Shown here piece after piece: positions 1 through 19,902 of a DNA stretch of 23,174 nt. Every line of letters begins with the position of its first letter. Position 1 is the stretch's first letter. Under the pieces are notes generated by a model. That model worked only from the letters and a program-made list of their open reading frames with translations. It was not told the origin of the DNA and searched no databases. The DNA lies in contig JAHQXB010000032.1 of NCBI GenBank assembly GCA_029856435.1, positions 1 to 23,174 on the forward strand, written 5' to 3'. The position numbers were made by a program, and so were the translations under genes. The stretch is from Candidatus Jordarchaeia archaeon. Its GTDB lineage: Archaea; Asgardarchaeota; Jordiarchaeia; Jordiarchaeales; Jordiarchaeaceae.

Positions 1-34
1 TTTTTGTGCTGGAGATTTTTTAGGGGTGTTTTTG

Positions 35-1636
35 TTAGTATTTTATTTCTTGGGAGTTTGAGAGGATTTCTTTGGGTGTTTTTAGGCTGTTTATGTCCAG
101 TGAGTAGTAGCGTTCCATTTCTATTTTTACTTTTTCTGGTAGGTTGATTCCGTCTCTGTGTGCCCAGTAGGTTTTTCCTTTGGGTTTTTGTAGTGGTTCT
201 CCTTGCTTTATTATGATTATTCCATTTTTTATGGTGTAGAGTGTTTGGGAGAGGGCTTTGATTAGTGCCTCTGTTTCCTGTGCAGGGTCTTGGGTTTGGG
301 GGTTGAAGTCGTATATTGCGATGTCTGCGTCTGAGCCTACTGATAGGTTTCCTTTGTTTGGTAGGTTTAGGGATTGTGCGGGGCTGGCGCGGGTTATTAT
401 TGCTATTTCGTAGAGTGTGTATTCTCGATTGATGGAGTGTAGTGGTGTGTCGGCTTCTAGTTTGACTTGGTCTCGGGCTTTTTTGCTTAGGAGCCATCCT
501 ATTATTTGGGGATAGTGGGTGATTAGTCCCAGGTTGGGGTGATCTACCGACAGCTGGATTTGCCAAGGATCCTTTACTTTTAGTGCTAGTTCCAGCCCTG
601 TGGCCCACATGATGCTCCCAGTTTTATCCATTTTATATTCGGTGGGTGTGGCTCCAAAGACTGCTTCAAGTTCAACTTGGTCAGTGAATATTTTTTTGCC
701 TCTACTAGTTGGGATTAGCAGCTGGTTGTCTGCATAGAGGCTTATTGTTTGGTGGGGCACCATTTGTCCTATGTCTGCTTCTACGTTGGGGTGACTGTTT
801 ATGTATTCTGCTATTTGTTCTGCTTGGGATTCAATGGATTCGTTTCCTCCGTAGCTGTGTAGTTGTGCATGTGCAAGGTGTATGGTTCTCTTCTTTTTGT
901 TGGGCTTTATTTCTTCTAGAGCTTTTAGTGTTTTGAGTGTTGTTTTGTAGTTTCCTGGCTTTCCTGCATTGTTGGGATGTATGTGGACGGGGTGTGGCAG
1001 TCCCAAGCGCTCATTTGCCTCTGCTATTATTTTGATGACGTCTAGGGGTGACACTCCGAGGTGCTTTATGGGTTCTTCTATGTTTGTTATTTCCTTTTTG
1101 AGGCTCCACATTTCGCTTCCTGTGGGGTTTAACAGTTTTACTCCATAGGTTTTGGTGGATTCCAGTAGCCATGAGATTATGGTCGCGGCTTCCTCTGCGG
1201 ATTTTTTCCTCACTGCGGGTAATAGATACCAGTAAACGTCTAGTAGCAATAGGCAGGCGTGATCCAGTGAGGGTATATCTAAAAATTCCAAGTGGGTGTG
1301 CAAAGCCTTTGTGGGTGAAACTGCAGCTTCGACGGCGAATGTATAGCCCATTCTTGAATATGTTAAGCCCACTTTTGGAGCGGTGAAAAGAAACTCGTCG
1401 GATGAAGGGGGGAAAAGCATGCGTGCAAAGTTCACATGTTGTGAGGCTATATGGGTGTGAATATCTATCCCGCCGGGGAGAATCATTTTTCCCTTAACGT
1501 CTATGATTTTGGCTTCATTTTCATTCACTGATTCAACTATCACTCCTTTTTTGATGGCTAGGTCCATACGTTCCCCATTTATCTTGTTTGCCGGGTCAAA
1601 AACAAAGCCATTCTTTATGAGAAGTGATTCAATCAT
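35..1636 (-). CDS. fwdA: Formylmethanofuran dehydrogenase subunit A-like amidohydrolase (FwdA/FmdA)
   Basis: Motifs DPANKING, GGIDIHTHIA, RMGYT, YGVK, LGLPHPVHIHPNNAGKPGN, HLAHAQLH, LSVDHPN and GNLSVGSDADIAIYD match FwdA. Start moved to ATG 1636 (MIESLLIKNG), which overlaps the fwdD stop. Confidence 0.88.
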   Translation of the reverse strand: MIESLLIKNGFVFDPANKINGERMDLAIKKGVIVESVNENEAKIIDVKGKMILPGGIDIHTHIASQHVNFARMLFPPSSDEFLFTAPKVGLTYSRMGYTFAVEAAVSPTKALHTHLEFLDIPSLDHACLLLLDVYWYLLPAVRKKSAEEAATIISWLLESTKTYGVKLLNPTGSEMWSLKKEITNIEEPIKHLGVSPLDVIKIIAEANERLGLPHPVHIHPNNAGKPGNYKTTLKTLKALEEIKPNKKKRTIHLAHAQLHSYGGNESIESQAEQIAEYINSHPNVEADIGQMVPHQTISLYADNQLLIPTSRGKKIFTDQVELEAVFGATPTEYKMDKTGSIMWATGLELALKVKDPWQIQLSVDHPNLGLITHYPQIIGWLLSKKARDQVKLEADTPLHSINREYTLYEIAIITRASPAQSLNLPNKGNLSVGSDADIAIYDFNPQTQDPAQETEALIKALSQTLYTIKNGIIIIKQGEPLQKPKGKTYWAHRDGINLPEKVKIEMERYYSLDINSLKTPKEILSNSQEIKY

Positions 1637-2030
1637 TGGCATCCTTTCCCAATAGTTTTCCAAAGAGTTTTTCTGGATCTAACACTTCTTCCTTTGTGGT
1701 TTCAATGCTGGCCTTTAAAACATAGCAGGAATTACTCCCTGTAACATCTATGTCCGGGTCTATTATAGCATTTAACCATGGCCCATTGGGCATGAGTGCC
1801 AATCCCTTTTTGGTCTCGTCTGTTTGGTAGGCTTTAACAACGACGCTCCCAAATTTTGTAGTCACTTTAACACAGTCACCATTTTTAATTCCGCGGCTAC
1901 CCATATCCTCCTTATTCATGAGTATTACTGCTGTGGAATCCACGTAACTTTTTGGGTCTGGATTTTCAACCATCATCCTGTTTTGCTCAATTGACCTTGC
2001 ATTACACAACAGTATTTCCAGCTTACCCAT
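1629..2030 (-). CDS. fwdD: Formylmethanofuran dehydrogenase subunit D-like (molybdopterin dinucleotide-binding domain)
   Basis: MNKEDM..GIKNGDCVKVTTKFGSVVVKA and GLALMPNGPWLNAIIDPD match FwdD; translationally coupled to fwdA. Start chosen at ATG 2030 because the ORF-track N-terminal extension looks non-homologous. Confidence 0.8.
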   Translation of the reverse strand: MGKLEILLCNARSIEQNRMMVENPDPKSYVDSTAVILMNKEDMGSRGIKNGDCVKVTTKFGSVVVKAYQTDETKKGLALMPNGPWLNAIIDPDIDVTGSNSCYVLKASIETTKEEVLDPEKLFGKLLGKDAND

Positions 2031-2340
2031 CAGAAGTCCTACTAAAGACATAGAAATCCGCCTCAGGCAAGCTAACAGAGTAGAAACCAGTACATAAGTT
2101 TTATGAACAAAAAATTTGACTGCACTGTAGCCGACGTCCACTTTTACGTTTTATTAAGTATTCTATCCAACTTTCCTGAGAGGTTCACGAAATTGGGAGC
2201 CAAATCGCCACCTTCACGCCAGCCATAAACGAGTGGGCCCCCTGCATGTAAAAAAGTTACTGTTATATGTTTAAGATTCGGTGGAGCCTCCCATATTTTG
2301 AACAAGTATGGAAGGGGAGCAGACTTAAATTAGAGGCAAG

Positions 2341-2350
2341 TTATTTAAAA
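2341..2350 (+). promoter_or_regulatory. Possible TATA box for queE
   Basis: TTATTTAAAA lies about 28-37 nt upstream of ATG 2378; GAGGTG immediately precedes the start. Confidence 0.35.
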
Positions 2351-2377
2351 GGATGTGGCATGGTCTGTTTCGAGGTG

Positions 2378-3270
2378 ATGGTCTTGGTTAAGGGATGGGT
2401 CGCTGAGGTGTTCTCTTCCTACCAAATCCCCCAAAAGGAGGGGGAGGTAAAGGAGAAGGAGGTAGCGTCAGCGGCTCGTGTTATGGAAAGCGTCAGATAT
2501 AGGAGGAGTGGAAGCTATTCCTTCGTCGAATCGCTCGATTCGCGGGCTGCAACCTAGCTATGGGGGAGTTTGGAACTAGGGGCTGCAGGTGGTGCGACAT
2601 CTTATATAACATGCTAAGACGCGAATCACCTGGAGCTCAAAAACCAGACGCAACTCAGCTTAGAGTGGAAGAAAGCCCCGGGACTGGAAAATTCGCAGGG
2701 CAAGCAAATCCCGTAGATCCAGCAACTCTTTGCAGCTATGTGAGAAAACTGAAAACTGCGGATCTTCACTCGGTATCATTTACTGGTGGGGAGCCTTTAC
2801 TTCAAATGGATTTTCTGAGGGAAGTTTCAGAGAACCTTGTCTCAGAGGGTTATATTCTCTTTCTTGAGACTAATGGTTCTTTACCTAGGTGTGCTTCAAA
2901 GGTGGCTGAACTTTTTGAATACTGCTGCTGTGATATTAAAGATGAGTCGGCGGGGGCTGCTTCAGACTGGAGAGCTCTAGTGGAGAGAGAGTTGGAAACC
3001 ATACAGGTTTTAGTTGAGGCAAAGGCAAAGACCTTCGCCAAAGTTGTAGTTACATCCCAAACAAAATCAGAGAATATTGAATGGTATGCTAGGGAGCTTG
3101 CTAAGTTGGGATGCCCCCTATGTATTCAGATTGTATCTCCATATGGCGAAGTGGAGGAAAAACCCACAATAAAACAACTGTTCCAGTTCACGGAGGCCGC
3201 GGCGAAGTATCTCCATAAGAATGACATTTCAATATCAATTCAAGCCCATAAAGTGTTGGGAATACTCTGA
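2378..3270 (+). CDS. queE: 7-carboxy-7-deazaguanine synthase QueE (radical SAM), intron-split: join(2378..2425,2452..2500,2531..2598,2626..3270), 269 aa
   Basis: Spliced N-terminus reads MVLVKGWVAEVFSSYQ|GEGGSVSGSCYGKRQI|FARFAGCNLAMGEFGTRGCRWCD|SPGAQ, restoring the QueE motifs E-x-F-x-S-x-QGEG, F-x-RF-x-GCN and C-xx-CD. Downstream are VSFTGGEPLLQ, LETNG and SIQAHKVL. Exons total 810 nt = 270 codons. queD follows. Confidence 0.9.
2426..2451 (+). other. Putative BHB-type intron 1 of queE (26 nt, frameshifting)
   Basis: ATCCCCCAAAAGGAGGGGGAGGTAAA. Central helix UACC(2420-23)/GGUA(2446-49), bulges AA^A(2424-26) and AA^G(2450-52), intron stem UCCCCC/GGGGGA. Splicing gives CAA|GGA = Q|GEG. The outer exon-exon helix is weak. 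Confidence 0.85.
2501..2530 (+). other. Putative BHB-type intron 2 of queE (30 nt, creates an in-frame TAG if retained)
   Basis: AGGAGGAGTGGAAGCTATTCCTTCGTCGAA. Bulges AU^A(2499-2501) and AA^U(2529-31), central helix AGAU/GUCG (3 pairs plus an A.G mismatch), intron stem GGAGGAG/UUCCUUC, outer helix AGCG/CGCU. Splicing gives ATA T|TC GCT CGA = I-F-A-R. Confidence 0.78.
2599..2625 (+). other. Putative BHB-type intron 3 of queE (27 nt, in-frame, would add ILYNMLRRE)
   Basis: ATCTTATATAACATGCTAAGACGCGAA. Central helix UGCG(2593-96)/CGCG(2620-23), bulges AC^A(2597-99) and AA^U(2624-26), intron stem UCUUA/UAAGA, outer helix CAGGU(G)G/CACCUG. Splicing gives GAC|TCA = CD|S. Confidence 0.8.
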
Positions 3271-3315
3271 ATCTTTCAGAAAGAATATGTATTGCCTTTT
3301 GTATGTACGTTTGCT

Positions 3316-3435
3316 ATGAAAAACCTTTAGGTTTTCATTCTTTATCTAAAAAGCGTAAGCGTATGAGGGTTTACCATGAAAAAGCTTTAGGTTTTCATCC
3401 TTTGTCTAAAGCGCTTTAGTGTATGGGTTTTTGGC
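3316..3435. repeat. Two imperfect 60-nt tandem units, each starting with inverted repeat ATGAAAA-N9-TTTTCAT
   Basis: Units start at 3316 and 3376; the first 35 nt are identical at 32 positions by manual alignment. Confidence 0.85.
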
Positions 3436-3769
3436 TGTCGTGTTTGAATAACGATATTGGGGCTCTAAAACCCGAAGGAAGGCTTATTTGGACTTCGAAT
3501 GCTTCCCACAATGGAAAAGAAGCCAAAAATAGCCCTCCCTTTCGGGGAAAGGAAACATATAACACCAGGTCGGCTCCCAGGAGCTAAATACATACTGCCT
3601 TTTTATTTGGCAGGAGAGTGAGGTGGAGGTGGATTATTGATAGATTGGTTTAATGTTTTTGTGTGGAAAAGTTTAAAGTGTTTTTGGGGGATTGTTGCAA
3701 GGGAGACAAAAAGGAATGAAATCTTCATATGTACGGGCAATTTTAAAATGTTTGAGGGAAGTTTGAGAG

Positions 3770-4234
3770 ATGGTCTACAAGCTTAAGGTGGAAAGAACTG
3801 ACCTAAACTTTTCTGCGGCTCATTTCCTAATACGCCACCCGAAATGTGAGCGTATACACGGCCATAACTATAAGGTGACTATTGAGATCGAGTCTGATAA
3901 ACTGAACAGTCAGCAAATGATAGTGGACTTTCTAGATGTAAGAAACGTAGCGAGGGATATTTGTCAGAAAATGGATCACTACATACTGATACCCACTAAA
4001 GAAAAAGAAGTGGAAATCAAGGAAATGGGAAAAGAAATAGAGGTTATAGCAAACGGGAGGAGGTACATCTTCCCCAAGGATGACGCATTACTTTTGCCTA
4101 TTGAAGCAACCACTGTGGAAAAAATATCCGAGTATATTTATAAACAGCTGAAAAAGTCACTCCTCAAAAACATGAAAATAAGGGTTTCAGTAGAGGAGGC
4201 TGAAGGGTCAATAGGCACCTACACAGAAGAATAG
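3770..4234 (+). CDS. queD: 6-carboxy-5,6,7,8-tetrahydropterin synthase (QueD/PTPS family)
   Basis: FSAAHF, CERIHGHNY, IVDF, MDHYILIP and TTVEKISEYI motifs; downstream of queE. Confidence 0.9.
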   Translation: MVYKLKVERTDLNFSAAHFLIRHPKCERIHGHNYKVTIEIESDKLNSQQMIVDFLDVRNVARDICQKMDHYILIPTKEKEVEIKEMGKEIEVIANGRRYIFPKDDALLLPIEATTVEKISEYIYKQLKKSLLKNMKIRVSVEEAEGSIGTYTEE

Positions 4235-4268
4235 TTGCAGCCAAAAAAGGGGGAGGAATAGGGGAAAA

Positions 4269-5744
4269 CTATTCAAGCAGTATTAAGTGCTGCTTCAAGG
4301 GTCTCTGAATTTCTCTATTTTTTAGAAACTGGTAGTACTGTATCACCTTAAAAACAGAATTTGATGCTTTAGGTATTGAAGGGTATATGAGGAAGCCATC
4401 ATTTAGGTACTGTTTTATAATTTTTAAACGCTCAGCCTCCATCTCAGGCTGGTACTCTCTAGGTCCACTGGAAGGGTGTAAAACGATAACCAGAGGCTTT
4501 TCCAATCTTTCTCTGATTTCTTTGACTATTTTGAAGAGCTCCTCGTTTCTGTCTCCCCACATCACCTCATGCTGTAACAGTATCAAATCAATATTAGGAT
4601 CCTCATCCACCAATTCCAATATTTTTATATACATTTTTAGATCGTAGTAGACAAAGTAACTGGCGTCAATGGGATTAGATATACCTGTTCCCACATCAGG
4701 AACTATTTCGCCCAATTCTTCCCTAGTTTTTTCACTAAAGGGTGGAGTCCTCAAACCAGCGCTCTCCAATGCGTCTGTGGAAACTACGCTTAGACCTCCA
4801 CCCGCCCCCACAATAGCAGTATTTACCCCTTTTGGGGGATTAAGCCTGAGAAAAGCCATGGTTACATCGCAAAGCTCTTCCATGCTATAGACCTGCACTG
4901 CTCCCGCCTGTTTCAACACCATACTCCAAATTTTGTTTGAACCCGCGAGGGAACCTGTATGTGAAAGGGTTGCGCGTGAACCACCCGCAGTCCAGCCTCC
5001 TTTCCAGACTACTACGGGTTTAATGCGGGTCGCTTCCTTTAAGGTTTTAAAAAAGCGGGGCCCGTTTCTTACCCCCTCAACATAGATATTAATAACCTTG
5101 GTTTTGGGATCCTCTGCGAAATACTCTAGGTAATCTGTGACTTCTAGATCTATTCCGTTGCCGTAGCTAACCATTTTGCTAAAGCGAATGTTGTTCCAGA
5201 AATCGGCAAAGCTGGCCATGGAAACAGTGTGTCCTCCACTTTGACTTACAAAAGATACTGTGCCCCCTTGTGGGGGATTGTATACGTAGGGGTATGAAAG
5301 TTTTCCCTCAAAAGAGTAGACGCCCATTCCGTTTGGGCCTACTATTCGGGTTTTTGTGCCGCGTATTATTTCTAGGAGTTCTTTTTCTAGTTTTTTGCCT
5401 TCTTCTCTCTCCGAGGTGCTTTCTGAGAATCCTGATGTGAAAATCATTACAAACTTGACTTGGGCTTCAACACAGTCTTTTACAACTTCTTTTATTAGTT
5501 TTTTAGGTATTGCCACTACGACGTAGTCGAGGGGTTCTGGCACGTCTTGTACTCTGGGGTATGCTTTTATGCCGAGTACCTCTTTTTCGTTGGGATTTAT
5601 GGGGTATAGGTGTTCTTTTGGGAAACCTCTGTTTAGTATTGAACGCATGTACCAGTTTCCGTGTTTGAAAGGGCTTTCGGTTGCGCCGACCACAGCTGCG
5701 GCTTTGGGGTGAAACAGAGAATCCAGTTCCTCAAATTTTTTCAT
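4269..5744 (-). CDS. Acyl-CoA synthetase (NDP-forming) alpha subunit, paralog 1
   Basis: CoA-binding AVVGAT...YPINP, VGPNGMG, SQSGG, SYGNGIDL, and phospho-His motif SHTGSLAG. ATG 5744 is preferred because GGTGG lies upstream; the ORF track gives GTG 5756. Confidence 0.88.
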   Translation of the reverse strand: MKKFEELDSLFHPKAAAVVGATESPFKHGNWYMRSILNRGFPKEHLYPINPNEKEVLGIKAYPRVQDVPEPLDYVVVAIPKKLIKEVVKDCVEAQVKFVMIFTSGFSESTSEREEGKKLEKELLEIIRGTKTRIVGPNGMGVYSFEGKLSYPYVYNPPQGGTVSFVSQSGGHTVSMASFADFWNNIRFSKMVSYGNGIDLEVTDYLEYFAEDPKTKVINIYVEGVRNGPRFFKTLKEATRIKPVVVWKGGWTAGGSRATLSHTGSLAGSNKIWSMVLKQAGAVQVYSMEELCDVTMAFLRLNPPKGVNTAIVGAGGGLSVVSTDALESAGLRTPPFSEKTREELGEIVPDVGTGISNPIDASYFVYYDLKMYIKILELVDEDPNIDLILLQHEVMWGDRNEELFKIVKEIRERLEKPLVIVLHPSSGPREYQPEMEAERLKIIKQYLNDGFLIYPSIPKASNSVFKVIQYYQFLKNREIQRPLKQHLILLE

Positions 5745-5782
5745 TTTAAAATCCACCGTTGTCTTTTGGTTTTAGAGAAAGT

Positions 5783-6664
5783 TTATTGCTCGCCCATGGC
5801 GAGTTTTAGTTCTTGTAGGGTTACTCGTTTTTTCTTTTCCAGTTTTTCTTGGGCTTGTTTTATTTTGGTTTGGATTATTTCTTCTTCCTTTTTTCTTTTT
5901 TCTTGGGCTTCCCTATTCCTTCTCTCCTTTTGTATTTTGATTTGTTGAGCTTTGTATAGTGATATTTCTTCTTCTATTTTTGTGAGTTGGTTTTCGCATT
6001 GAATTATTTTTTGGAATACTTCGATGTAGTTTTTGTGGTCGGCGTCTGCGGAGCTTCTTAGATCATCTCTTCTCTTTGTGAGGTTTTTTATTTGTTCGAA
6101 TAGAGGTTTGCTCTTTTCATATTCTTCTTGCATGTGGTTTTTTATTTCAATGATTTTTTGTCGTGTTTGTTCCATTTCTTTTTTCAGTTGGTCTATTGTT
6201 TTTTGTATTTTGAGGTTTTCCTCGTAGTATGCTAGGTCTTCTTCCATTTTTTCTATTTGTTTGACGATGGCGTTTTCCTCTTCTAGGGATAGGGTGGTTG
6301 TTTGCTGTTTCCACTCAAGTTCGTTTCTTTTTTTCTTTAATTGTTCGCCGTTAAAACTTATGGGGTGCAGTTTGCTTTTTTGTTCCTTTATTTTGGAAGA
6401 GAGTTCTCTAATTTTTTCGTAAAGCTTTTCTTTCTCCATTTTCATTTGGCTTAGCCGAGAGCTAGATTCCTCGTTTTGCTTTCGAATCTCTTTTATTTGC
6501 TGAGCGAGGAGTTGCACCTCTCTATTTTTCTCATCTCTTTTTTGTTTATATCCCTCAGCGCTTTCCCTTAGTTTTCGTAGCTCCTCAATTAGGGGAACAC
6601 ACTCCTTGTTTAGAGAATAAATTTTGGCTTTGAAAAATTCCTCGTTTTCCGTCAAAGTTCTCAC
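5783..6664 (-). CDS. Archaeal coiled-coil protein (COG1340-like)
   Basis: Heptad-rich E/K/Q sequence with KRDEKN, LEWKQQTTTLSLEEE, ADADHK and C-terminal VTLQEL, as recalled for this family. Confidence 0.7.
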   Translation of the reverse strand: MRTLTENEEFFKAKIYSLNKECVPLIEELRKLRESAEGYKQKRDEKNREVQLLAQQIKEIRKQNEESSSRLSQMKMEKEKLYEKIRELSSKIKEQKSKLHPISFNGEQLKKKRNELEWKQQTTTLSLEEENAIVKQIEKMEEDLAYYEENLKIQKTIDQLKKEMEQTRQKIIEIKNHMQEEYEKSKPLFEQIKNLTKRRDDLRSSADADHKNYIEVFQKIIQCENQLTKIEEEISLYKAQQIKIQKERRNREAQEKRKKEEEIIQTKIKQAQEKLEKKKRVTLQELKLAMGEQ

Positions 6665-6823
6665 CAGAATCTAGGGACGAAAGGCTAGTACCTTAAATAC
6701 TAAAGATGCTTGCCTTACGGTATATAAGAGCACGGGTTAAAAACCTTACTTTAAAATTAGGAATCCCACTTAAAAAACTCACCTAAATTGTAAATTGGAG
6801 TACCTTTTATAAGTTGAAATGCA

Positions 6824-6877
6824 TTTTTGACGATTCCCACGACTAAGGTCGGGGCCTTTCTGCCAACGTTTTGTAAA
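6824..6877 (+). repeat. Dispersed ~54-nt intergenic repeat, copy 1, with hairpin CCC(A)CGAC-TAAG-GTCGGGG
   Basis: Aligns by eye with 9984-10036: TTTTTGACG...CCACGA..AGGTCGG..CTTTCT.GCCAAC..TTTGTAAA. Confidence 0.7.
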
Positions 6878-6961
6878 CCTTGATTTTTGACACAGAAGTT
6901 TTATGTGTGGGGTTAAAAGATTTGTTCTTAGAGATGGTAACATTTATGGGGTGCTTCCTCC

Positions 6962-7543
6962 TTGAGGCGTAAGGACCACTACTATTACAGAGCTCGTAGA
7001 GAGGGTTACCGGTCTAGGGCGGCCTACAAACTAAAGCAACTTGATAAAAAGTTTGGGATTTTTAAGGGTGCAAAGGCAGTTCTGGATTTGTGTTGTGCCC
7101 CTGGGGGGTGGCTGCAGGTTGCTAGGGAGGGGGTGGGCAACGAGGGTGTTGTGGTGGGAGTGGATATTAACAAGATTTCAAGTATAAATGGTGTGACCTT
7201 CATTTGTGGAGACATTGTTAAAGAGGAGACTCTGAATCGGGTTTTGAGTGTTTGTGAAGAGTTTGATGTTGTTCTGAGCGATTGTTCACCTAATGTAAGT
7301 GGGATATGGAGTGTGGATCATGAGCGACAGATGTTTCTTGCTAGGGCCTCTCTGGAGATAGCTAAGAGGGTTCTTAAAAATGGTGGAACACTAGTTATTA
7401 AGGCCTTTCAAGGTTCGGAGTATGCAAGTTTTTTGAGTGAAGTTAAGCAGCATTTTGGCTTCGTTAGAACTACAAAGCCAGAAGCTTCAAGGAAAACCAG
7501 TGCTGAAATGTATATTGTGGCTAAGAATTTTCGAAGGCTGTGA
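6962..7543 (+). CDS. rlmE: 23S rRNA Um2552 2'-O-methyltransferase RlmE/FtsJ
   Basis: GYRSRAAYKLKQLD, VLDLCCAPGGW, VLSDCSPN, LVIKAFQG and KPEASRKTSAEMY. TTG start is uncertain. Confidence 0.93.
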   Translation: MRRKDHYYYRARREGYRSRAAYKLKQLDKKFGIFKGAKAVLDLCCAPGGWLQVAREGVGNEGVVVGVDINKISSINGVTFICGDIVKEETLNRVLSVCEEFDVVLSDCSPNVSGIWSVDHERQMFLARASLEIAKRVLKNGGTLVIKAFQGSEYASFLSEVKQHFGFVRTTKPEASRKTSAEMYIVAKNFRRL

Positions 7544-7581
7544 AAAGAAAAAATAGAATTCCTCTCGGGGAGAGACGGGTG

Positions 7582-7959
7582 TCAGAAGTCCATTATTTGC
7601 TTTTGTATCCAGTTTGTCAATTTTTGGCACTTGATGGGAGATATTGGTTGGGCTGCACCGCAACGCGTTATTGTTATGCATGTAAAGCAGGGGCAGTCAT
7701 TTAGGGTGTTCCATGTTATTGGCGTTTCTTCTTCTTTATTTGCGTATAGGCGGTATGTCCATCTTCCTTTGTAGAGCTCCTTGACTCTTCTTGCTAAACC
7801 CTTACTTTCAAGCTTTACTGCTATGCGAGAACCTTCCCGGCTATTTACTCCAAGCTTCTTCCAAAGGTCACTCTGAAGTATACCTTTGCTTCCAGCTTCT
7901 AAAACTAGTTCGTAGGCAGTTTCTTCCAAACCTGTCACCTTACACCCAATAGTAACCAA
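7582..7959 (-). CDS. TFE-beta / RPC34-like transcription factor (winged helix plus C-terminal Fe-S Cys cluster)
   Basis: GILQSDLWKKLGVNSREGSRIAVKLESKGL winged helix, GRWTYRL, and CPCFTC...C...C. Exact start is uncertain. Confidence 0.8.
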   Translation of the reverse strand: MVTIGCKVTGLEETAYELVLEAGSKGILQSDLWKKLGVNSREGSRIAVKLESKGLARRVKELYKGRWTYRLYANKEEETPITWNTLNDCPCFTCITITRCGAAQPISPIKCQKLTNWIQKQIMDF

Positions 7960-8233
7960 GAGTAGATTTATTGTTTTAAGGAGGTGTAGCTATTGGTTAG
8001 ACGGACTCCAAATTAAACAATAAAAAGGCAATATTTATACTTTATCATGAAAGTGCTAACCGCAGAAATAACGGTTTTGGAGAAGCACAAATGGTTCCAA
8101 ACGGGTTGCAGGACGTTTGACCTATTCGAAGAAAAAGTGCTAAAAATAAAAGATTTATATAGCATATACATTAAGAAACAATAATTAAATCCCAACCGAG
8201 AAACGCTGTCCAATAGTAAAGGAGTGGAAAACC

Positions 8234-8482
8234 TTGCCAAGGTTTTGTGACTATTGCATAAACAAGGCAAAGTATCGGTGTAAGAGGCACCGGAAAAGTT
8301 TCTGTAGGGATCATGGTTTAAGATGCCCAGGATGCGGAGCTGAACTATGCTTGGAGTGCCTTACCAAGAGGGAATGTCCCAACTGTCATACCGAACTACT
8401 CATTTGCCCCACCTGTCTTTCAAATAAGAAAATAACGCGTCTCAGAGCGGACAATATGAAATGCCCAGTTTGCAATAAGTAG
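8234..8482 (+). CDS. Small Cys/His-rich multi-zinc-finger protein
   Basis: 82 aa with 14 Cys, mostly in CxxC pairs; GGAGTGG upstream of the TTG start. Confidence 0.7.
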   Translation: MPRFCDYCINKAKYRCKRHRKSFCRDHGLRCPGCGAELCLECLTKRECPNCHTELLICPTCLSNKKITRLRADNMKCPVCNK

Positions 8483-8592
8483 TCCAAAATTCTGACAATA
8501 AACATAATCCTATTTTCTAAATGCCTTCATCCTCAGATACATTTGATTTTTCACAAAAAGTTTCTTAATTTTCAAAGTTTAAAATAAATAGT

Positions 8593-9981
8593 ATGTTAAA
8601 AGCGACAATAAAAAACAGTCAAAAGCTTATTGAAAATTCAAGCGGAAAGAACAGGTTGGCCAGAAAAATTACACTGGCTCTAATCGAAACTGCACTGAGA
8701 GCCGCCAATCCTAGAAGTGTGGTGAAAAAAAATCTTCTTTTAAAGAGGAATAAATTAATAATTAAAGGGAAAACTTTTGACCTCAACAGTTTAAACAACA
8801 TCTATGTTGTAGGAGGGGGCAAAGCAAGCGGTGCCATGGCAGAAACAGTGGAAGAAGTTTTAGGGGATAGAATTAGTGGGGGGTGCGTTAACATTCTCAA
8901 AGGCACCAGAAACCAGTTTAAAACCTCCAAAATCGAACTTGTTGAGGCTTCGCATCCCGTCCCCGATATGAATGGGTTGCAGGGAGCCAAGAAAATGATG
9001 AGTTTGGTGGGAGAGGCCCAAGAAGGCGACCTAGTCCTATGTCTAATTTCGGGTGGAGGATCAGCACTCATCCCATTGCCTGTAGAGGGAGTTTCACTAG
9101 AAGACCTCCAAGAGGTCAACAGAGCTTTACTTAAAAGCGGCGCTGAAATAAATGTGATGAACGCTGTGCGTAAACACCTCTCAGCTGTTAAGGGCGGCAA
9201 CCTTGCTAAGGCAGCTTACCCCGCAACAGTTGTTAGCCTAATAATTTCGGATGTAGTAGGCGACCCCCTAGAAACCATCGCTTCTGGTCCAACAGTGCCA
9301 GATCCAACCACATATCAGGACGCCATTAATTACTTAAAGGAATATAATATCTGGGACATTTGTCCCGAAGGAGTAAAGAAGCACCTAAATAGAGGCTTGG
9401 AGGGCAAATATCCAGAAACCCCCAAGCCTGGAGATCCAATTTTTGAGAGGGTGTTTAATCTCATTATTGCTACAAATAGAATGGCGTGTTTAGCGGCTCA
9501 AGAAGAGGGACGGAAGAGGGGATTAAAATCTCTAGTGTTAACAACTTTTCTGGAGGGGGAGGCGAGGGATGCAGGTGTTCTGGTAAGCGGAATCGCTAAA
9601 GAAATATTTTACTACAATATACCTTGGAAGAAGCCGGTAATTGTTATTCTGGGAGGCGAAACCACGGTCACAGTACGGGGTAAGGGGAGAGGGGGAAGAA
9701 ATCAGGAGTTAGCTCTGAGTGCCGCACTAAAGCTAAGAGGAGTTGAGGGAGTTGTTATAGGTTCTGTGGCTAGTGATGGAATCGACGGTTTTTCTAATGC
9801 TGCAGGTGCAATTATTGATGGCCAGACAATTGATGAGGCTAAGAGAAGGGGATTGGACGCTTTGAGCTATCTTTTGGATAATAATTCTACAGCGTTTTTT
9901 GAGAGTATAGATGATTGTTTGGTTTTTACCGGTCCCACGGGAACTAACGTGAATGACTTGGTTTTCATAGCGGTGGTCTAA
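8593..9981 (+). CDS. Glycerate 2-kinase (MOFRL/GckA family)
   Basis: GGGKAS, EASHPVPD, LISGGGSAL, VRKHLSAVKGG, SDVVGD, GGETTV, GGRNQE, SDGIDG and TGTNVND. Confidence 0.92.
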   Translation: MLKATIKNSQKLIENSSGKNRLARKITLALIETALRAANPRSVVKKNLLLKRNKLIIKGKTFDLNSLNNIYVVGGGKASGAMAETVEEVLGDRISGGCVNILKGTRNQFKTSKIELVEASHPVPDMNGLQGAKKMMSLVGEAQEGDLVLCLISGGGSALIPLPVEGVSLEDLQEVNRALLKSGAEINVMNAVRKHLSAVKGGNLAKAAYPATVVSLIISDVVGDPLETIASGPTVPDPTTYQDAINYLKEYNIWDICPEGVKKHLNRGLEGKYPETPKPGDPIFERVFNLIIATNRMACLAAQEEGRKRGLKSLVLTTFLEGEARDAGVLVSGIAKEIFYYNIPWKKPVIVILGGETTVTVRGKGRGGRNQELALSAALKLRGVEGVVIGSVASDGIDGFSNAAGAIIDGQTIDEAKRRGLDALSYLLDNNSTAFFESIDDCLVFTGPTGTNVNDLVFIAVV

Positions 9982-9983
9982 AT

Positions 9984-10036
9984 TTTTTGACGCTCTCCAC
10001 GAAGGTCGGCGGCTTTCTCGCCAACAATTTTGTAAA
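9984..10036 (+). repeat. Dispersed intergenic repeat, copy 2
   Basis: Aligns by eye with 6824-6877. Confidence 0.7.
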
Positions 10037-10101
10037 TAACTTAAATAGGATTCCGAACAATTGCTTTAATGTATGTGACGGAAATATTGGTGAATTTTTA
10101 A

Positions 10102-10947
10102 ATGGTTAAAGATTTGTCAAGGTTCTTAAAAGAGGGGCTTCTTGAAGCCTTACCCCCGCTTCCCCCTTCTGTTAATATGGCTTTGGCCGGATTGATGACT
10201 TTGGTTGTGTGTGTTGCCACTATGGCTTTTCAGATGTATTTTCCACTTTCCCAAGGTTACATCAATGCATGTGAAGGCGCCATATATGTAATTGCTCTAC
10301 TCTTTGGGCCAATTATTGGTGGCATCGCGGGGGGAATAGGCTCAATGCTTGCCAACGTTTTTCTGGGCTTTAACCAATATGCTCTCGGCACGCTGATATT
10401 TAAGGGGGGAGAAGGCCTAGCAGTGGGTCTTTTGGGGTATAAATTCCGTCTTTTATTTAAAAGGTGGTGGAGGCTCCTAGGCATAATTATGTGTGGTGGG
10501 ATTTCTGGCCTGATTCTCTACGTGGGTATACGTTATTTAACGGGTTTTGCAGAAATTTATGGAGGAGTTCAACCCTGGTGGTGGAGCTCTAGTTTATTTG
10601 GTGCATATTTTCAGTATGGATGGTGGTACACTCTTGTTAACGTTCCGTGGTGGACTTGGCTTATTATATCCTCATGTTTCGGTTTGCTGTTCTTATGTTT
10701 GATTCTTAATGTGGATGCATCTGTTGGTTGGAGCGCTCTTGCCACAATTGGGGGTGGCCTTCTCATAATATTAGGATACTTCATTATAGAACAATTCTTC
10801 CTAGGCCTCCCGGGTACCAGTATTGCCACCACCACGGGCCAAATTCTCTTAGGCATAATTATAGCCATACCAATAGAGACAGCTATGAGAAAAATTTCAC
10901 CAGAAATTGTTGTCCAAAATTATAGCTGGGAGAAACAAGAAAAATAG
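10102..10947 (+). CDS. ECF transporter S component with additional transmembrane insert
   Basis: GYIN...IYVIALLFGPIIGGIAGGIGSMLA..FLG...GTLIFKGGEG and C-terminal GQILLGIIIAIP; hydrophobic throughout. Confidence 0.75.
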   Translation: MVKDLSRFLKEGLLEALPPLPPSVNMALAGLMTLVVCVATMAFQMYFPLSQGYINACEGAIYVIALLFGPIIGGIAGGIGSMLANVFLGFNQYALGTLIFKGGEGLAVGLLGYKFRLLFKRWWRLLGIIMCGGISGLILYVGIRYLTGFAEIYGGVQPWWWSSSLFGAYFQYGWWYTLVNVPWWTWLIISSCFGLLFLCLILNVDASVGWSALATIGGGLLIILGYFIIEQFFLGLPGTSIATTTGQILLGIIIAIPIETAMRKISPEIVVQNYSWEKQEK

Positions 10948-11383
10948 GTTGCAAAATTGTGTCTTTAAATTATATCTTTAATTTCTTCTTGGAAAAATTA
11001 ACTACACTGTAGTTAAACACTTATTTTGTTCTCAGCAGACATGTAGATATAGTAGGGTATAATGGACTTAATTTTTACCATTTTTAGTTACTAGAGAGGA
11101 TGACTTAGGGTTCTTTTTGAGAAATCGGGGTTTGAAACAGCCACATTTTTGTGAGGGAGCGCGTCCTTCGAGTCATTACTGAAGTTTCTTCCCTTCTCCA
11201 TAAAGCATGTAATTAATTTTCGTATCAGTGATTTTCCTTGGCAGACATTCTGTTATAGTTTATTCCCCTTATGAGGAGTTTATAAGCGTACGAGAAATTT
11301 TAATAGTGGACACTGTTCTCCTAGATTTAGGAAAAAGGGCTATTAGTGAAATGTATATTCGAGTTTTTAGGAGAGTATTGTGA

Positions 11384-11944
11384 TTGGAGCCGGGTGGCGG
11401 AACAGTATCTGATGTTCAGTTTGACGTTTCCCGCTATTTTCTCAGATTCGAGAACAGCACAGTAAAAGTCATAGTAGTAAAAGACCATCCAAAAATTGAA
11501 GTGGGTAAGAGAAGCATTGGTCCTTTTGTGGAAGGTAGAGAGATGAGTCTCAGACTCTGGGAGGCTGCGGAACTAGTTCAGAGTGGAATCGTGAAATACA
11601 AGGAGGAAACCAAGTTTGACATATCAGAACTATATAAGCAGACTTGGAGCGAATCGAATAAGCCTCAACTCCAACAAATCGACCCCAATTTTTACCAAAA
11701 ACTTAGAATGTATTACTCTGACCCCAATGTGGAAGACTCAGAGAAGAGGAAGGTGGAGGACATGGTAACGGATCTGGTATCACAACGCCTATCTAAGATT
11801 CTAAAAATAGCCCTCAGAGGGGGAAGTAGATCAGAGATGACCAAGAATATGACTGAAGAAGAAAAGTGGCTATACGATAGGCTGAACAGTCTACTCCGAA
11901 GCTGGGAGAGAGAATTACGTACTTTTAAAAGGGAGGCGGATTAA
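11384..11944 (+). CDS. gins23: GINS23 (Psf2/Psf3-like) replication factor
   Basis: B-then-A domain order: KVIVVKD..IGPF..G....LRLWEAAELVQSG, then IDPNFYQKL and MTEEEKWLY. Lies directly upstream of mcm. Confidence 0.82.
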   Translation: MEPGGGTVSDVQFDVSRYFLRFENSTVKVIVVKDHPKIEVGKRSIGPFVEGREMSLRLWEAAELVQSGIVKYKEETKFDISELYKQTWSESNKPQLQQIDPNFYQKLRMYYSDPNVEDSEKRKVEDMVTDLVSQRLSKILKIALRGGSRSEMTKNMTEEEKWLYDRLNSLLRSWERELRTFKREAD

Positions 11945-12009
11945 GAATAAAACATAGAAAAAAATATTCTAAATTCGAGAAACCATAATTTTTTTAAGAG
12001 GAGAAAGTA

Positions 12010-14064
12010 ATGCTTGGAGAGGCTCCCGCGGAGCGGTTTGAAAACTTTGTGAAAACTTATCGCACAGAATCCGGCTCAATGGAGTATCGCGAAAAAATTC
12101 GAAAAATGACTGTAACAGGTGAACAAAGCCTAGTTGTCAATTTTGACGATCTGATAAGATTCGACCCAGAACTGGCCAAAACAGTACTAGAAAAACCGGA
12201 AAAAACAATTAGTGAAATTAATCAGGCGTTAAAAAGGATAATAGAGGCAGAGGATCCAGAGTTCGCTGAAACTATGCAAAACTTTTATGTGCGTTTCGCT
12301 AAACTGCCTGAGGAATATCACATTAACCTCAGAAAAATTAGGTCAGAACACATAAACAAGCTCATAATGGTAAGCGGAATTCTGACCAGAGCCAGCGAAG
12401 TAAAACCCAAACTAGTAGAAGCGGTATATGTGTGCCAGAGATGCGGCGAAACTATGATTGTAGCCCAGCAAGATGCAAAAATAATACAACCCTCAGAGTG
12501 CTACAATCCCAACTGTAGAAGAAAAGGACCCTTCAAACTAATCATAGAAGAATCAAGATTTATCGACTGGCAAAAAATAAGAATACAGGAAAAACCAGAG
12601 GAACTACCGCCAGGCCAACTACCCCGCAGCCTAGATTCCATACTCACCGACGACATTGTAGACATTGCAAGGCCCGGAGACAGAATCACACTAACCGGAA
12701 TACTCCGCACCACACCAGAAGTCGCAACTAGGGGAGGGAGCTTGGTAACCTTCAGAACCTTCCTCGAAGTAAACTATGTAGATGTCTCAGAGGTTGAATT
12801 CGAAACAGTGGAGATAACAGAGGAAGAAGAGAGAAAGATCAAAGAACTGGCAGAAGATCCCTTCATACACCAAAAGATAGTTCGTTCCATAGCCCCCAGC
12901 ATTTATGGAATGGAAAACATAAAGGAAGCTGTAGCCCTACTACTCTTCGGGGGACAACCCAAGGTTATGGAGGACGGCGTCACAATAAGAGGAGAAGTCA
13001 ACGTTTTAATAGTGGGGGACCCCGGAACCGCCAAAAGTCAGCTCCTACAGTACGTAGCACGCATTGCACCCCGGGGTTTATACACCTCGGGAAAAGGAAC
13101 CACCGCAGCCGGACTAACAGCTGCGGTTCTTCGCGACCCAGACACAGGAGCCATGATTCTGGAGGCAGGAGCGCTGGTACTCGCAGACCGCGGAGTAGCT
13201 TGTGTAGACGAAATGGACAAGATGAGGGATCAGGATAGAGTAGCCATCCACGAAGCAATGGAGCAGGGAACAGTATCCATCGCCAAGGCAGGTATAGTGT
13301 CCACGCTTAACGCCCGCACCGCGATACTTGCAGCGGCAAACCCGGCACTGGGAAGGTGGAATCCGTTCAAAACAGTTAGTGAAAACCTGAAACTACCTGT
13401 AACAATACTCTCCCGTTTTGACCTAATTTTTGTACTTGTGGACCGACCCCTAGAGGAACAGGACAGAATGATGACAGAGCACATACTCTCTATGCATAGG
13501 ACTCGCACTGTTGAAAAGGCACCCCCAATTCCACCCGAACTTTTGAGGAAATATTTTATATACGCAAGGAATAACGTTCAACCCAAGTTGACCCCAGAGT
13601 CGGCGGAAAAGTTGAGAGAATTCTACTTAGAAATGAGAAAAATGGGAGAACAGCCGGACGCCCCAGTACCCATAACAGCTCGCCAGCTAGAAGCCTTGGT
13701 TAGACTTTCAGAAGCCAGAGCCCGCATGGCTCTTCGGGAAGAAGTTACACCTGAAGATGCAGAGGCAGTAATCAGGCTTATGAGATTCTCACTAAAGCAA
13801 GTTGGTACAGACGAACATGGACTATTTGATATTGACAGCATCTACGTAGGGGTTACCAAGAGTCAAAGGGACAAGATGGAAGCAATTCTGAACATTATAC
13901 GAACCCTAGAAGAACAAACAGAGGCCCCTGTTCCTGTAAACGTTATCATAGAGAAGGCTGAGTTAGAGAATATCGACGCTGCGTTCGTCAACCGAGCCTT
14001 AACCCAGTTGAAAAATGATGGAATACTATTTGAGCCTAAGCCGGGTTTTGTAAAGAGAGCCTAA
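12010..14064 (+). CDS. mcm: Minichromosome maintenance helicase MCM
   Basis: Zn finger CQRC/CYNPNC, FIDWQKIRIQE, Walker A GDPGTAKSQ, Walker B VDEMDK, SRFD arginine finger, ITARQLE. No intein seen. Confidence 0.97.
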   Translation: MLGEAPAERFENFVKTYRTESGSMEYREKIRKMTVTGEQSLVVNFDDLIRFDPELAKTVLEKPEKTISEINQALKRIIEAEDPEFAETMQNFYVRFAKLPEEYHINLRKIRSEHINKLIMVSGILTRASEVKPKLVEAVYVCQRCGETMIVAQQDAKIIQPSECYNPNCRRKGPFKLIIEESRFIDWQKIRIQEKPEELPPGQLPRSLDSILTDDIVDIARPGDRITLTGILRTTPEVATRGGSLVTFRTFLEVNYVDVSEVEFETVEITEEEERKIKELAEDPFIHQKIVRSIAPSIYGMENIKEAVALLLFGGQPKVMEDGVTIRGEVNVLIVGDPGTAKSQLLQYVARIAPRGLYTSGKGTTAAGLTAAVLRDPDTGAMILEAGALVLADRGVACVDEMDKMRDQDRVAIHEAMEQGTVSIAKAGIVSTLNARTAILAAANPALGRWNPFKTVSENLKLPVTILSRFDLIFVLVDRPLEEQDRMMTEHILSMHRTRTVEKAPPIPPELLRKYFIYARNNVQPKLTPESAEKLREFYLEMRKMGEQPDAPVPITARQLEALVRLSEARARMALREEVTPEDAEAVIRLMRFSLKQVGTDEHGLFDIDSIYVGVTKSQRDKMEAILNIIRTLEEQTEAPVPVNVIIEKAELENIDAAFVNRALTQLKNDGILFEPKPGFVKRA

Positions 14065-14255
14065 ACCCAAACCAGAAGATGAAAACATAGAAGAAAAGGT
14101 TAAGATAAAATAATCACTTCAAAGGATTGGTTGTATAAGCTACATGGAACTCTGTAAACCTAATAGAGTAGTGCTTTTGCCAGAATTTAGTAGTGGTCTT
14201 TAATGGAGACGCATACATGGTCTTTGTGATTGTACTTTTTGCTATATTGTTTTGT

Positions 14256-14720
14256 TTAAGCGGTGATCGGGGTCTCGTCTGTGGGAATAGGGACCGCTCC
14301 GCTCTCTGAGGGATAGTAGCGGTTTAGAAGTATCCTGTATGACCTCTCTATGTTTTCGAGACGTTCTTGGTACCTTTTGACTATGCTCATAATCTTTTTG
14401 ATACTTGAGTCTTTGTTAAATATGGTGGTTAGCACTCCTAGGTTTCCTATACCCTGGATTAAGATGTTACCGTCTTTTCCGCTTATTAGTACTTTTTTCA
14501 CTTCTCCCCTTCCTAAATGGTTTGCCAGAGTTGCACCAATGTAAAATGCTGCGGTTTTGGCGCAGGCAATAAAGTCCCTGTCAACATCCTCTTTTAGAGT
14601 GCTTGCGAGAAGTCTTCCGTCTGCATAGGTAAAGGTGGAGAAGTCTATCTCGGGATTTTCTTTTTCCATTTCCTTCAAAATATATAATGCTTGGTTACAC
14701 AAAGTCCGAAATTGATTCAT
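14256..14720 (-). CDS. Roadblock/LC7 (MglB-like) domain protein
   Basis: DGRLLASTL...LGRGEVKKVLISGKDGNILIQGIG..GVLT is a typical Roadblock pattern. Confidence 0.78.
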   Translation of the reverse strand: MNQFRTLCNQALYILKEMEKENPEIDFSTFTYADGRLLASTLKEDVDRDFIACAKTAAFYIGATLANHLGRGEVKKVLISGKDGNILIQGIGNLGVLTTIFNKDSSIKKIMSIVKRYQERLENIERSYRILLNRYYPSESGAVPIPTDETPITA

Positions 14721-15039
14721 TTCTTTTCTATTCCTCCATCAAAAGTTCTCAGAGCCTTGTTTACTATTAAGAGCACTCCGCAGACTCAGTTTCCAGATAT
14801 CACCATTTAACAGAGCTGCGAAGACTCTAAACAGCTAAGAAGAATATCTGAGTACGCTTAATAAACACCACATAATTTCCCGACCAAAACCAAAGGCGTG
14901 AAATACAATGAATGAATCAAAGAAAAAATTTCCTAGAGAAATACGAGTTAAAAAACGAATTCAAAAAATTATATTGTAGAAAGTTAAGAAAAACAAAAGT
15001 TTTTAAAAAATTTAGAAGTGCTCTTAGAAAAGTAGAAGG

Positions 15040-16425
15040 CTATTCTACAGTGTTAGCCCATGGAACCATTTCTTTAAGCTGCCTCATTGCCTCCTCAACT
15101 TTCTCCTTCGGATATTCGTATGGTATCAGTTTACCAGCATGGAAATCGTCAAAAGCCTGCATATCAAAGTGTCCGTGTCCACAAAGCAGGAACAGTATGG
15201 TTTTCCTCTCGCCTGTTTCCTTACATTTTAGTGCCTCATCGATTGTAGCTTTAATGGCGTGAGAGGGTTCGGGTGCAGGGATTATGCCCTCAGTCTTGGT
15301 AAACATTGTAGCCGCTTCGAATACTTCTACTTGGTTATAAGCTTTGACACCTACTTTGCCCTCTTTATAAAGTAAGCATAGTGTGGGGGCTTTTCCATGG
15401 TATCTTAAGCCTCCTGCATGTATTGGGGGTGGAATAAATGTGTGTCCCAGTGTGTACATTTTGAGCATGGGGCCTGACGCTGCCACATCTGGAAAGTCGT
15501 ACATGTATTTGCCCTTTGTAATAGAGGGACACGCTGTTGGTTCAACTGCAACGAACTCGCAGTTTTTGGGAGCCTTTTTTGCCACTTTTTCATAGTAAAA
15601 TGGCCAGAATAAGCCTGAGAAGCTGCTTCCGCCACCGATGCAACCAAAGATGACGTCGGGATAGTCGTCTATCTGTTCAAACTGTTTTAGGGCCTCCTGG
15701 CCAACAACTGTCTGGTGTAAGAGCACGTGGTTAAGTACGCTTCCTAGCGCATATTTTGTGGCATTATTTGAGAGTGCATCCTCCATCGCTTCGCTTATAG
15801 CTAATCCGAGGCTTCCTGTATTGTCTGGATCCCTAGCTAGTACTTTTCTGCCGAATTCCGTATTGTTACTTGGGCTTGCAAATACTTCGGCTCCCCAGTT
15901 TTCCATTAGAACCCGGCGGTAAGGTTTCTGCAGATAGCTAACTTTTACCATGTATATTCTTGATTTGATACCAAACATTTTGCATGCGAATGCCAGGGCA
16001 GAACCCCACTGGCCTGCACCTGTTTCAGTTGTTATGCATTCTATTCCCTCTTTCATATTAAAGTAGGCTTGAGCCACGGAGGTGTTGCTTTTGTGGCTTC
16101 CTGGTGGGCTTACCCCCTCGTATTTGTAGTAGATTTTCGCGGGTGTTTTTAGGGCTTTTTCTAAGCTTAGTGCTCTGTAAAGTGGTGTTGGCCTCCAGAT
16201 TCTGTAGATTTCCCGTACTTCTTCTGGTATCTTTATCCACCTTTCTTGGCTAACCTCTTGTTTTACTAGTTCCTTGGCGAATACTGCTTCTAATACTTCG
16301 GGAGATGGTGGTGCTCTAGTTTTAGGGTCGAGAGGTGGGGGTAAGGGTTTTGGAAGGTCTGGTTGTATATTATACCATTGTTTGGGTATTTCTTCCTCAT
16401 CTAACAGTATTTTTCTGGTTGACAA
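15040..16425 (-). CDS. trpB2: Tryptophan synthase beta chain 2 (TrpB2)
   Basis: [20 protein letters not shown] lysine [15 protein letters not shown] and [10 protein letters not shown]. Start moved to TTG 16425 with GGGTGA upstream. Confidence 0.93.
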
Positions 16426-16598
16426 ATATTTCACCCATTTACTTTTTTTGATGTTCTTTTCGTGTTTTGGGTACTCTGCCGGCTGATTGTGTTTCAGTGC
16501 ATATATGAACACTATTTGGTATATAAGTTAAATATAAATCTTACGTGTACAAAAATATACATATAGACATATAAAGCGCCTCAAGAGGAGAATTAATT

Positions 16599-17102
16599 AT
16601 GTGGCGAAAAACTGCAGAATACTTCTCAAACCATCAAGAAAGACTCAGCGTAGCCAGAGTACTTGTGGAGAACGGTTTGAATATCAAAAACGGAAAAATA
16701 TACTGTAATGAGATTGAAATTCCGATCAAGAGAATAGCTCAAGCAGCAAAGGTTGATAGAAGAACGGTTCTAGAAACCATCAAAATGATCAACAAAAATG
16801 AAGAGCTAAAAACAATTTTTACACTTATGAGATCCGCAGGACTTTCCCTAAAAGAAATAGCGCGACCCCTCAACCTGGGAGTGGTTGAAATCACAGCCGA
16901 TGACCCTCGAAGTGTGGGCATACTAGCTGGCGCCGCCACCATTCTAGCCAATGAGGGAATAAGCATCAGGCAGGCACTCACAGACGATCCCGAACTCAGC
17001 CCCGAGCCCAGACTAACACTTATTGCCGATAGAAAAATACCCGGGGAACTAATACCGAAATTTTTAGAGATAAAAGGTGTAGCCAAGGTTTCAATTTATT
17101 AA
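16599..17102 (+). CDS. ACT-domain amino-acid metabolism regulator (COG2150-like)
   Basis: N-terminal HTH-like IAQAAKVDRRTV and C-terminal ACT (GILAGAATILANEGISIRQA..DPE). GAGGAG RBS; divergent from trpB2. Confidence 0.85.
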   Translation: MWRKTAEYFSNHQERLSVARVLVENGLNIKNGKIYCNEIEIPIKRIAQAAKVDRRTVLETIKMINKNEELKTIFTLMRSAGLSLKEIARPLNLGVVEITADDPRSVGILAGAATILANEGISIRQALTDDPELSPEPRLTLIADRKIPGELIPKFLEIKGVAKVSIY

Positions 17103-17148
17103 ACTAATCGGTAAAAAAAATTAAAAAAGTTAAAAAAGGTGAAAGTAT

Positions 17149-19792: not shown

Positions 19793-19902
19793 ATAAATTG
19801 TTTTCAAGTAGTGTTCTCGCTAGTTTGCTCTTACAATAATATGATTAACATTTAATTTTGATAAAAAAAGGATATCAGCAAAATAAGTAGGCATGCTGAC
19901 TT

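Follow-up and report, generated by a model that had tools for sequence, protein, structure and literature searches.

A queE-like radical-SAM gene of an Asgard archaeon, very probably assembled from four exons by removal of three bulge-helix-bulge introns

We analysed a 23,174-nucleotide (nt) stretch of DNA from Candidatus Jordarchaeia archaeon (contig JAHQXB010000032.1, assembly GCA_029856435.1; hereafter, the window) and focused on a gene at positions 2378-3270 of its forward strand that resembles queE, a member of the radical S-adenosylmethionine (SAM) family. To judge from its sequence and that of its relatives, this locus is very probably a working gene of four exons (48, 49, 68 and 645 nt) separated by three introns of the bulge-helix-bulge (BHB) type, the transcript of which would be spliced by the endonuclease EndA and the ligase RtcB—that is, by the tRNA-splicing machinery. 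A first-pass annotation, drawn from the letters of the window, had proposed that three short deletions turn the interrupted locus into a single open frame with contiguous motifs, and this was borne out in full. Once 2426-2451 (26 nt), 2501-2530 (30 nt) and 2599-2625 (27 nt) are deleted, the 810 nt that remain of 2378-3270 form one 269-residue frame, with SYQ|GEG, RQI|FARFAGCN and WCD|SPG joined across the three junctions.

Read without splicing, the gene has an interrupted N-terminus: frame 0, opened by the ATG at 2378, reaches ...FSSYQ before it drifts, and a second frame contains GEGGSVSGSCYGKRQI, followed by a TAG and then by ARFAGCN...CRWCD. All features of the proposed gene lie on the plus strand. 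Exon 1 (2378-2425; 48 nt, 16 codons) ends in ...FSSYQ, and its last nucleotides supply the 5′ side of both the outer and the central helix in the first BHB; intron 1 (2426-2451; 26 nt, phase 0) shifts the frame. Exon 2 (2452-2500; 49 nt) encodes GEGGSVSGSCYGKRQI plus the first base of a Phe codon, and intron 2 (2501-2530; 30 nt, phase 1) stays in frame and holds the TAG. Exon 3 (2531-2598; 68 nt) contributes the last two bases of the Phe codon and ARFAGCNLAMGEFGTRGCRWCD, with the Cx11CxxC iron-sulfur cluster motif; intron 3 (2599-2625; 27 nt, phase 0) is in frame and stop-free in this strain. Finally, exon 4 (2626-3270; 645 nt, 214 codons and the stop) carries the radical-SAM core. The Met at 2378 is conserved within the genus ('FEVM') and an upstream ATG at 2360 is not. 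About 33 nt 5′ of the start codon, a TATA-like box, TTATTTAAAA, can be read at 2341-2350 (plus strand); its position, together with the usual spacing of archaeal promoters, suggests that the transcript is leaderless or has a very short leader.

The spliced product aligns without gaps at all three junction sites with intact orthologues of about 260-290 residues (P0016, P0023, P0027 and others), just as the first-pass annotation had expected. The motifs SSYQGEG, Cx11CxxC and FTGGEPL occur together only in the spliced reading, where they align with those of the orthologues. Exon 4 scores 31 bits against PF04055 (cut-off 29.5), and on its own it matches QueE, NrdG and PflA models, all far under their cut-offs. 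For the intact orthologues P0016, P0023 and P0027, QueE models are the best matches (TIGR04508, 47-55 bits against a cut-off of 240), and several homologues are named 7-carboxy-7-deazaguanine synthase QueE by their sources. Moreover, a queD-like gene of the 6-pyruvoyl-tetrahydropterin synthase family (3770-4234, plus strand; PF01242, E = 8e-26) lies 500 nt downstream on the same strand, and genes for QueC and an arcTGT-like protein are found elsewhere in the genome, with queD, queC and arcTGT all intact. The gene is thus probably QueE, an assignment resting on the best-hit family, synteny and source names and not on a curated cut-off.

When each insert is folded together with its flanking sequence, the arrangement is that of archaeal pre-tRNAs: the four exon bases immediately ahead of a 3-nt bulge pair with four intron bases located just before the final two intron nucleotides, the intron stem comes after the 5′ bulge, and base pairs link the 3′ exon to the 5′ exon. 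Intron 1 has a central helix UACC:GGUA (4/4 pairs), a 5′ bulge AA^A, a 6-bp inner stem UCCCCC:GGGGGA and a 3′ bulge AA^G. Intron 2 shows a central helix (A)GAU:GUC(G) with 3/4 pairs, a 5′ bulge AU^A, a 10-bp inner stem and a 3′ bulge AA^U. In intron 3, the central helix UGCG:CGCG (4/4) is accompanied by a 5′ bulge AC^A, a 5-bp inner stem UCUUA:UAAGA, a 3′ bulge AA^U and an outer helix CAGGUGG:UCACCUG. The 5′ bulges are exactly 3 nt in all three introns; the 3′ bulges measure 2-3 nt with small asymmetries. Helix, bulge and inner-stem geometry is that of BHB introns, and the queE motifs are of the relaxed, not the canonical, form.

The cut position provides a second line of evidence. In each of the three introns, cutting after bulge nucleotide 2 reproduces the homology-defined, frame-restoring junction, and this junction scores highest among 289 offset combinations, in agreement with the coincidence first reported for this locus. 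Sampling 2 million random sites in the genome gave a rate of 1.5e-4 for a 4/4 central helix combined with a stem of 5 bp or more, and of 5e-7 for a 3/4 or better helix combined with a stem of 10 bp or more. In addition, the minimum-energy structure computed for the first 303 nt contains all three BHBs at once (z = -3.65). Other intron types were considered and rejected: spliceosomal, group I and group II introns do not fit inserts of 15-30 nt that start with A or U, mostly end in AA and contain no ribozyme domains, and Rfam and ARAGORN searches of the window returned no match. BLAST of the three queE introns against the genome found no further copies, so they do not form a repeat family.

To place the gene in its lineage, we examined 11 genomes of the Jordarchaeia/Freyarchaeia, representing two families and three genera and including the one-contig genome G006. 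Each has a single queE orthologue, and the three interruptions fall at the same codons and in the same phases in all 11. Intron lengths range over 20-26 nt (intron 1), 18-30 nt (intron 2) and 15-30 nt (intron 3, with 15-17 nt in the family to which this genome does not belong, hereafter the other family); they need not be divisible by three, and stops occur in most of the introns. Once the introns are removed by the BHB rule, exon 2 measures 49 nt and exon 3 68 nt in every genome (11/11), and the N-terminal peptides align without gaps. The first-pass annotation had all introns starting with A and ending with AA, which holds for this genome but not for the class, where the other family shows U starts and some introns end in AU, AC or AG. 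The 15 orthologues found in other Asgard families, from a sample of 110 other Asgard genomes, are all uninterrupted at the three sites. The sharing of the same three introns by all 11 genomes of the class indicates their presence in its common ancestor; they would have been gained before its two families diverged and retained since.

The nearest proteins in the databases are named Freyarchaeota and Jordarchaeales, which accords with the Asgard host that had been conjectured, and nearly all of them are called N-terminally truncated. Among the top protein-database matches there is no full-length spliced-type protein of this class; in the one match of 264 residues (P0002), the N-terminus is a wrong-frame reading.

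Compensatory change in the stems lends further weight to the proposed folds. The BHB of intron 1 was recovered unaided by RNAalifold; under the structure proposed here, 97.7% of its cells are paired as against at most 70.5% in slid controls, and all five of its inner pairs show changes on both sides (for example CCCCC:GGGGG, CUUCC:GGAAG and CCUUA:UAAGG). For intron 2, 92.5% of cells are paired as against at most 62.6% in slid controls, four pairs show compensatory change, and the central helix of the other family has the full 4 bp (CGAU:GUCG). The MAFFT/RNAalifold alignment of intron 3 was misaligned between the families and unusable, and end-anchored counts were used instead; here, the central helix shows U:G/U:A variation and the outer helix differs between families yet still pairs. 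The mini-exons, for their part, have ratios of nonsynonymous to synonymous substitution (dN/dS) of 0.05-0.2 within families; between families, about 70% of amino acids remain identical despite saturation at synonymous sites. On this substitution pattern, the queE mini-exons are evidently under purifying selection.

These data bear directly on the idea that queE is a decaying pseudogene and its inserts disabling junk. The unspliced reading, with its frameshift and TAG, would look the part, and gene callers do truncate nearly all relatives. However, decay would not be expected to keep three interruptions in 11 species of two families with constant exon lengths, nor to leave dN/dS at 0.05-0.2 with saturated synonymous sites and compensatory changes within the inserts; moreover, the gene is single copy in this genome and the rest of the pathway is intact. 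We regard a pseudogene as highly improbable, and the functional queE of the first-pass annotation is upheld by conservation across the class, dN/dS and compensatory stem changes alike. Equally, the inserts might be assembly or sequencing artefacts, the source genome having been assembled from a metagenome into 181 contigs. Yet they recur in 11 separate assemblies, including the one-contig G006, and in contigs, assembled separately, of a strain that differs by about 4-5%, one record of which (record 2) spans 1801-3197 with none of the inserts skipped. An artefactual origin is therefore scarcely conceivable.

A further alternative is that the inserts stay in the mRNA and that the ribosome skips them by translational bypass or frameshifting, as in gene 60 of phage T4. 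Each insert is short and hairpin-forming, and no spliced RNA has been seen, as such a reading would predict. It would, however, require three separate hops of 15-30 nt, and matching take-off and landing codons were not seen at the junctions, albeit in a reading of the sequence that was not systematic. What is conserved is BHB geometry, with frame-restoring junctions at the cut positions of the endonuclease, rather than hop signals, and we consider bypass very unlikely. Conservation, selection, the separate assemblies and BHB geometry jointly make pseudogene, artefact and ribosomal bypass unlikely explanations, and leave a spliced queE as the reading we favour.

Within a spliced queE, another nuclease or ligase pathway could be at work, or splicing could be partial or regulatory—for instance with intron 3 kept as a nine-residue insertion, or with retention gating archaeosine synthesis. 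Some copies are stop-free and in frame, among them intron 1 of genome G010 (24 nt, L005:2317-2340) and intron 3 of the window (2599-2625), retention of which would add 8-9 residues. These copies, and the relaxed form of the BHBs, leave some room for such schemes; in addition, all three introns fall within the first 250 nt, and an unspliced mRNA would give only short peptides. Intron 3, however, brings a stop or a frameshift in nearly all other species, with a TAG in sister species at 96% identity and a frameshift in G007. Its retention would also add residues immediately behind the third cysteine of the cluster (CxxCD|S), a point at which none of the orthologues is extended. No feature points to a different nuclease, and the regulatory idea is speculative; on balance, this group of alternatives is unlikely.

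On the EndA/RtcB route, each intron would fold with its flanking exon bases into a relaxed BHB in the primary transcript, and a heterotetrameric (alpha-beta)2 EndA would cut after the second nucleotide of each bulge, at six sites in all. RtcB would then ligate the exons and probably circularise the introns, such that only the triply spliced mRNA would encode the 269-residue enzyme. The genome holds the components that this scheme calls upon, with two EndA-domain genes and one RtcB gene. The EndA alpha subunit, encoded at L020:1178-1756, most resembles the catalytic alpha subunits of A. pernix, S. tokodaii and P. aerophilum and aligns without gaps with A. pernix EndA over the segment GQPLGIRKPKSPQFTRPLELS, which we take to be the crenarchaeal broad-specificity loop. 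The second EndA-domain gene, at L021:1195-1788, lacks the catalytic His, as expected for a structural beta subunit. Asgard EndA is described as an (alpha-beta)2 enzyme with an L1 loop (PMC5829648). The pre-mRNA of crenarchaeal cbf5 is processed by the hetero-oligomeric type of EndA, which reportedly cleaves its relaxed BHB, with the cut between bulge residues 2 and 3 (PMC2738675).

Several points weigh against a spliced queE and deserve to be set out together. Splicing is deduced here from genomic sequence, and no run recorded as RNA contains the queE locus; likewise, EndA cleavage of motifs this relaxed is a prediction for this organism. Neither the 3′ bulges nor the outer helices are regular, an A.G mismatch sits in the central helix of intron 2, and in the other family intron 3 is nearly devoid of an inner stem. 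Transcription and translation are coupled in archaea, and three splicing events would have to outpace ribosomes on a probably leaderless queE mRNA. Finally, queE contigs from runs labelled metatranscriptomic carry the inserts unspliced, and an exact search for the exon3|exon4 and exon1|exon2 junctions in Joint Genome Institute metagenome contigs—probably DNA, and hence uninformative—gave 0 matches each. The unspliced contigs, coming from runs that are probably DNA as well, are evidence neither for nor against splicing. The two hot-spring runs, X1 and X2, contain a strain whose identity to the window over 1-20000 is mostly 85-95%; both look like DNA because intergenic DNA is evenly covered.

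The closest known parallel is the intron of cbf5 in the Desulfurococcales and Sulfolobales (Crenarchaeota), a single intron with splicing confirmed by cDNA (Watanabe 2002; Yoshinari 2006; Yokobori 2009, PMC2738675). Both genes have small introns within the coding sequence, mostly with a relaxed BHB and with a cut predicted between bulge residues 2 and 3, in hosts with a hetero-oligomeric EndA, and both are mis-annotated by gene callers as split or frameshifted. They differ in that queE has three introns rather than one, encodes a queE-like radical-SAM protein, belongs to an Asgard lineage (Jordarchaeia/Freyarchaeia) as opposed to Crenarchaeota, and has splicing read from sequence where that of cbf5 is confirmed by cDNA. 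The proposed mechanism is that of cbf5; what is new is the presence of three introns in one gene, the gene itself and the phylum. Splicing of genes other than cbf5 was unconfirmed at the time of that work (PMC2738675), and our full-text literature searches for archaeal coding genes with a BHB intron returned cbf5 alone, with its one intron, the case that the first-pass annotation had named.

In the same lineage, 92-95% of tRNA genes in Freyarchaeia are reported to have introns, often several each (PMC11291895). The multi-intron tRNA genes of Freyarchaeia and Atabeyarchaeia (PMC11291895; bioRxiv 10.64898/2026.10.13.758758) share with queE several BHB introns at non-canonical positions and, presumably, processing by EndA and RtcB. 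They differ in that the exon structure is set by the RNA fold, whereas the exon halves of the queE motifs are also constrained by codons. Term searches of both sources found no mention of introns in protein-coding genes or mRNA.

Outside the archaea, HAC1 and XBP1 mRNAs each have a single stress-regulated intron cleaved by IRE1, with ligation by Trl1 or RtcB. Like queE, they have a small, spliceosome-independent mRNA intron cut at stem-loops, with RtcB-type ligation and a frame that needs splicing; unlike queE, they depend on IRE1 rather than EndA/TSEN and on one stress-regulated intron, and the likeness does not imply homology of the introns. Spliceosomal and group II introns resemble the queE inserts in outcome only, namely a protein gene in pieces that needs RNA splicing; at 15-30 nt the inserts are far too small, they lack GU...AG ends and ribozyme domains, and the mechanisms are unrelated. 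The suggestion that an Asgard gene of this kind bears on the origin of intron-rich genes was accordingly reduced to an analogy, as BHB and spliceosomal introns are mechanistically unrelated; for the same reason, the queE introns have no direct bearing on the origin of spliceosomal introns.

The gene for RtcB may itself be interrupted in the same manner. Between TLPD and AHQGYGFPIGG, it carries 30 extra nucleotides that stay in frame and include a TGA (contig C93:1547-1576, minus strand, genome G000; locus L022). This insert displays BHB geometry, with CCCG:CGGG as the central helix, AC^A and AA^G as the bulges and an inner stem of 4 bp, and the conserved motif of RtcB reappears once it is removed. 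In each of the six genomes of the genus the RtcB match is broken (by an in-frame stop in five, and as a truncated match in G006), and the insert is absent from the four RtcB genes that were found in the other family. If this insert is a BHB intron, the ligase for BHB splicing depends on the splicing of its own mRNA. Extending both cases, obligatory mRNA splicing by the tRNA-splicing machinery could be routine and ancient in this Asgard class, covering queE and, in this genus, the RtcB mRNA, with a splicing system that depends on its own product; we advance this broader proposal tentatively, as one falling somewhat short of an even chance.

Under this broader proposal, splicing capacity could also couple tRNA processing to tRNA modification, as queE makes a precursor of the latter. 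If queE does need three splicing events, genes in pieces that require enzymatic mRNA splicing would be tolerated and maintained over the long term in prokaryotes with coupled transcription and translation. An entire class within the archaeal group nearest to eukaryotes appears to have kept a three-intron queE, and annotation is affected, with queE of nearly all relatives currently called truncated. Codons and the exon half of the splicing motif would both constrain the coding sequence. At about 300 nt and with three motifs, the start region of queE would also make a compact substrate for defining the substrate range of an Asgard EndA.

A genome-wide scan for BHBs combined with open frames produced 4640 matches as against 4437 for parallel-pairing decoys; the signal was not separated, and a codon-usage filter did not help. 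The scan recovered the RtcB intron and missed those of queE, which have short exons and, in intron 2, a 3/4 helix. With the signal at about background level, no genome-wide count of introns is given. Some individual candidates, with BHB inserts of 30-33 nt, were noted at C35:14826-14855 (minus), C73:11339-11368 (minus), C68:10550-10582 (plus) and C5:19743-19773 (minus) of G000; mostly with A-rich bulges and strongly coding flanks, they look like putative further mRNA introns. One such junction, ...NVTNDVY|AIGGTD..., resembles the PurM/HypE/SelD superfamily. A 22-nt candidate at 17671-17692 (minus strand of the window) was rejected, its flanks having no Pfam match and its sequence not being coding-like.

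Elsewhere in the window, the spacer between queE and queD (3283-3655) is occupied by a member, about 300 nt long, of a dispersed repeat family resembling miniature inverted-repeat transposable elements, with at least 40 matches of 69-99% identity across the contigs of the genome and tandem 60-nt units at 3301-3420. In the X1/X2 strain, 71 other letters replace the 372 of this repeat region. Finally, three paralogues combining coenzyme A (CoA)-binding and succinyl-CoA-ligase-like flavodoxin domains, of the ADP-forming acyl-CoA synthetase type, lie at 4269-5756 (minus), 18332-19792 (plus) and 19903-21366 (plus), with genes for MCM, a GINS-like protein, FtsJ and a roadblock/LC7 protein near them in the window.
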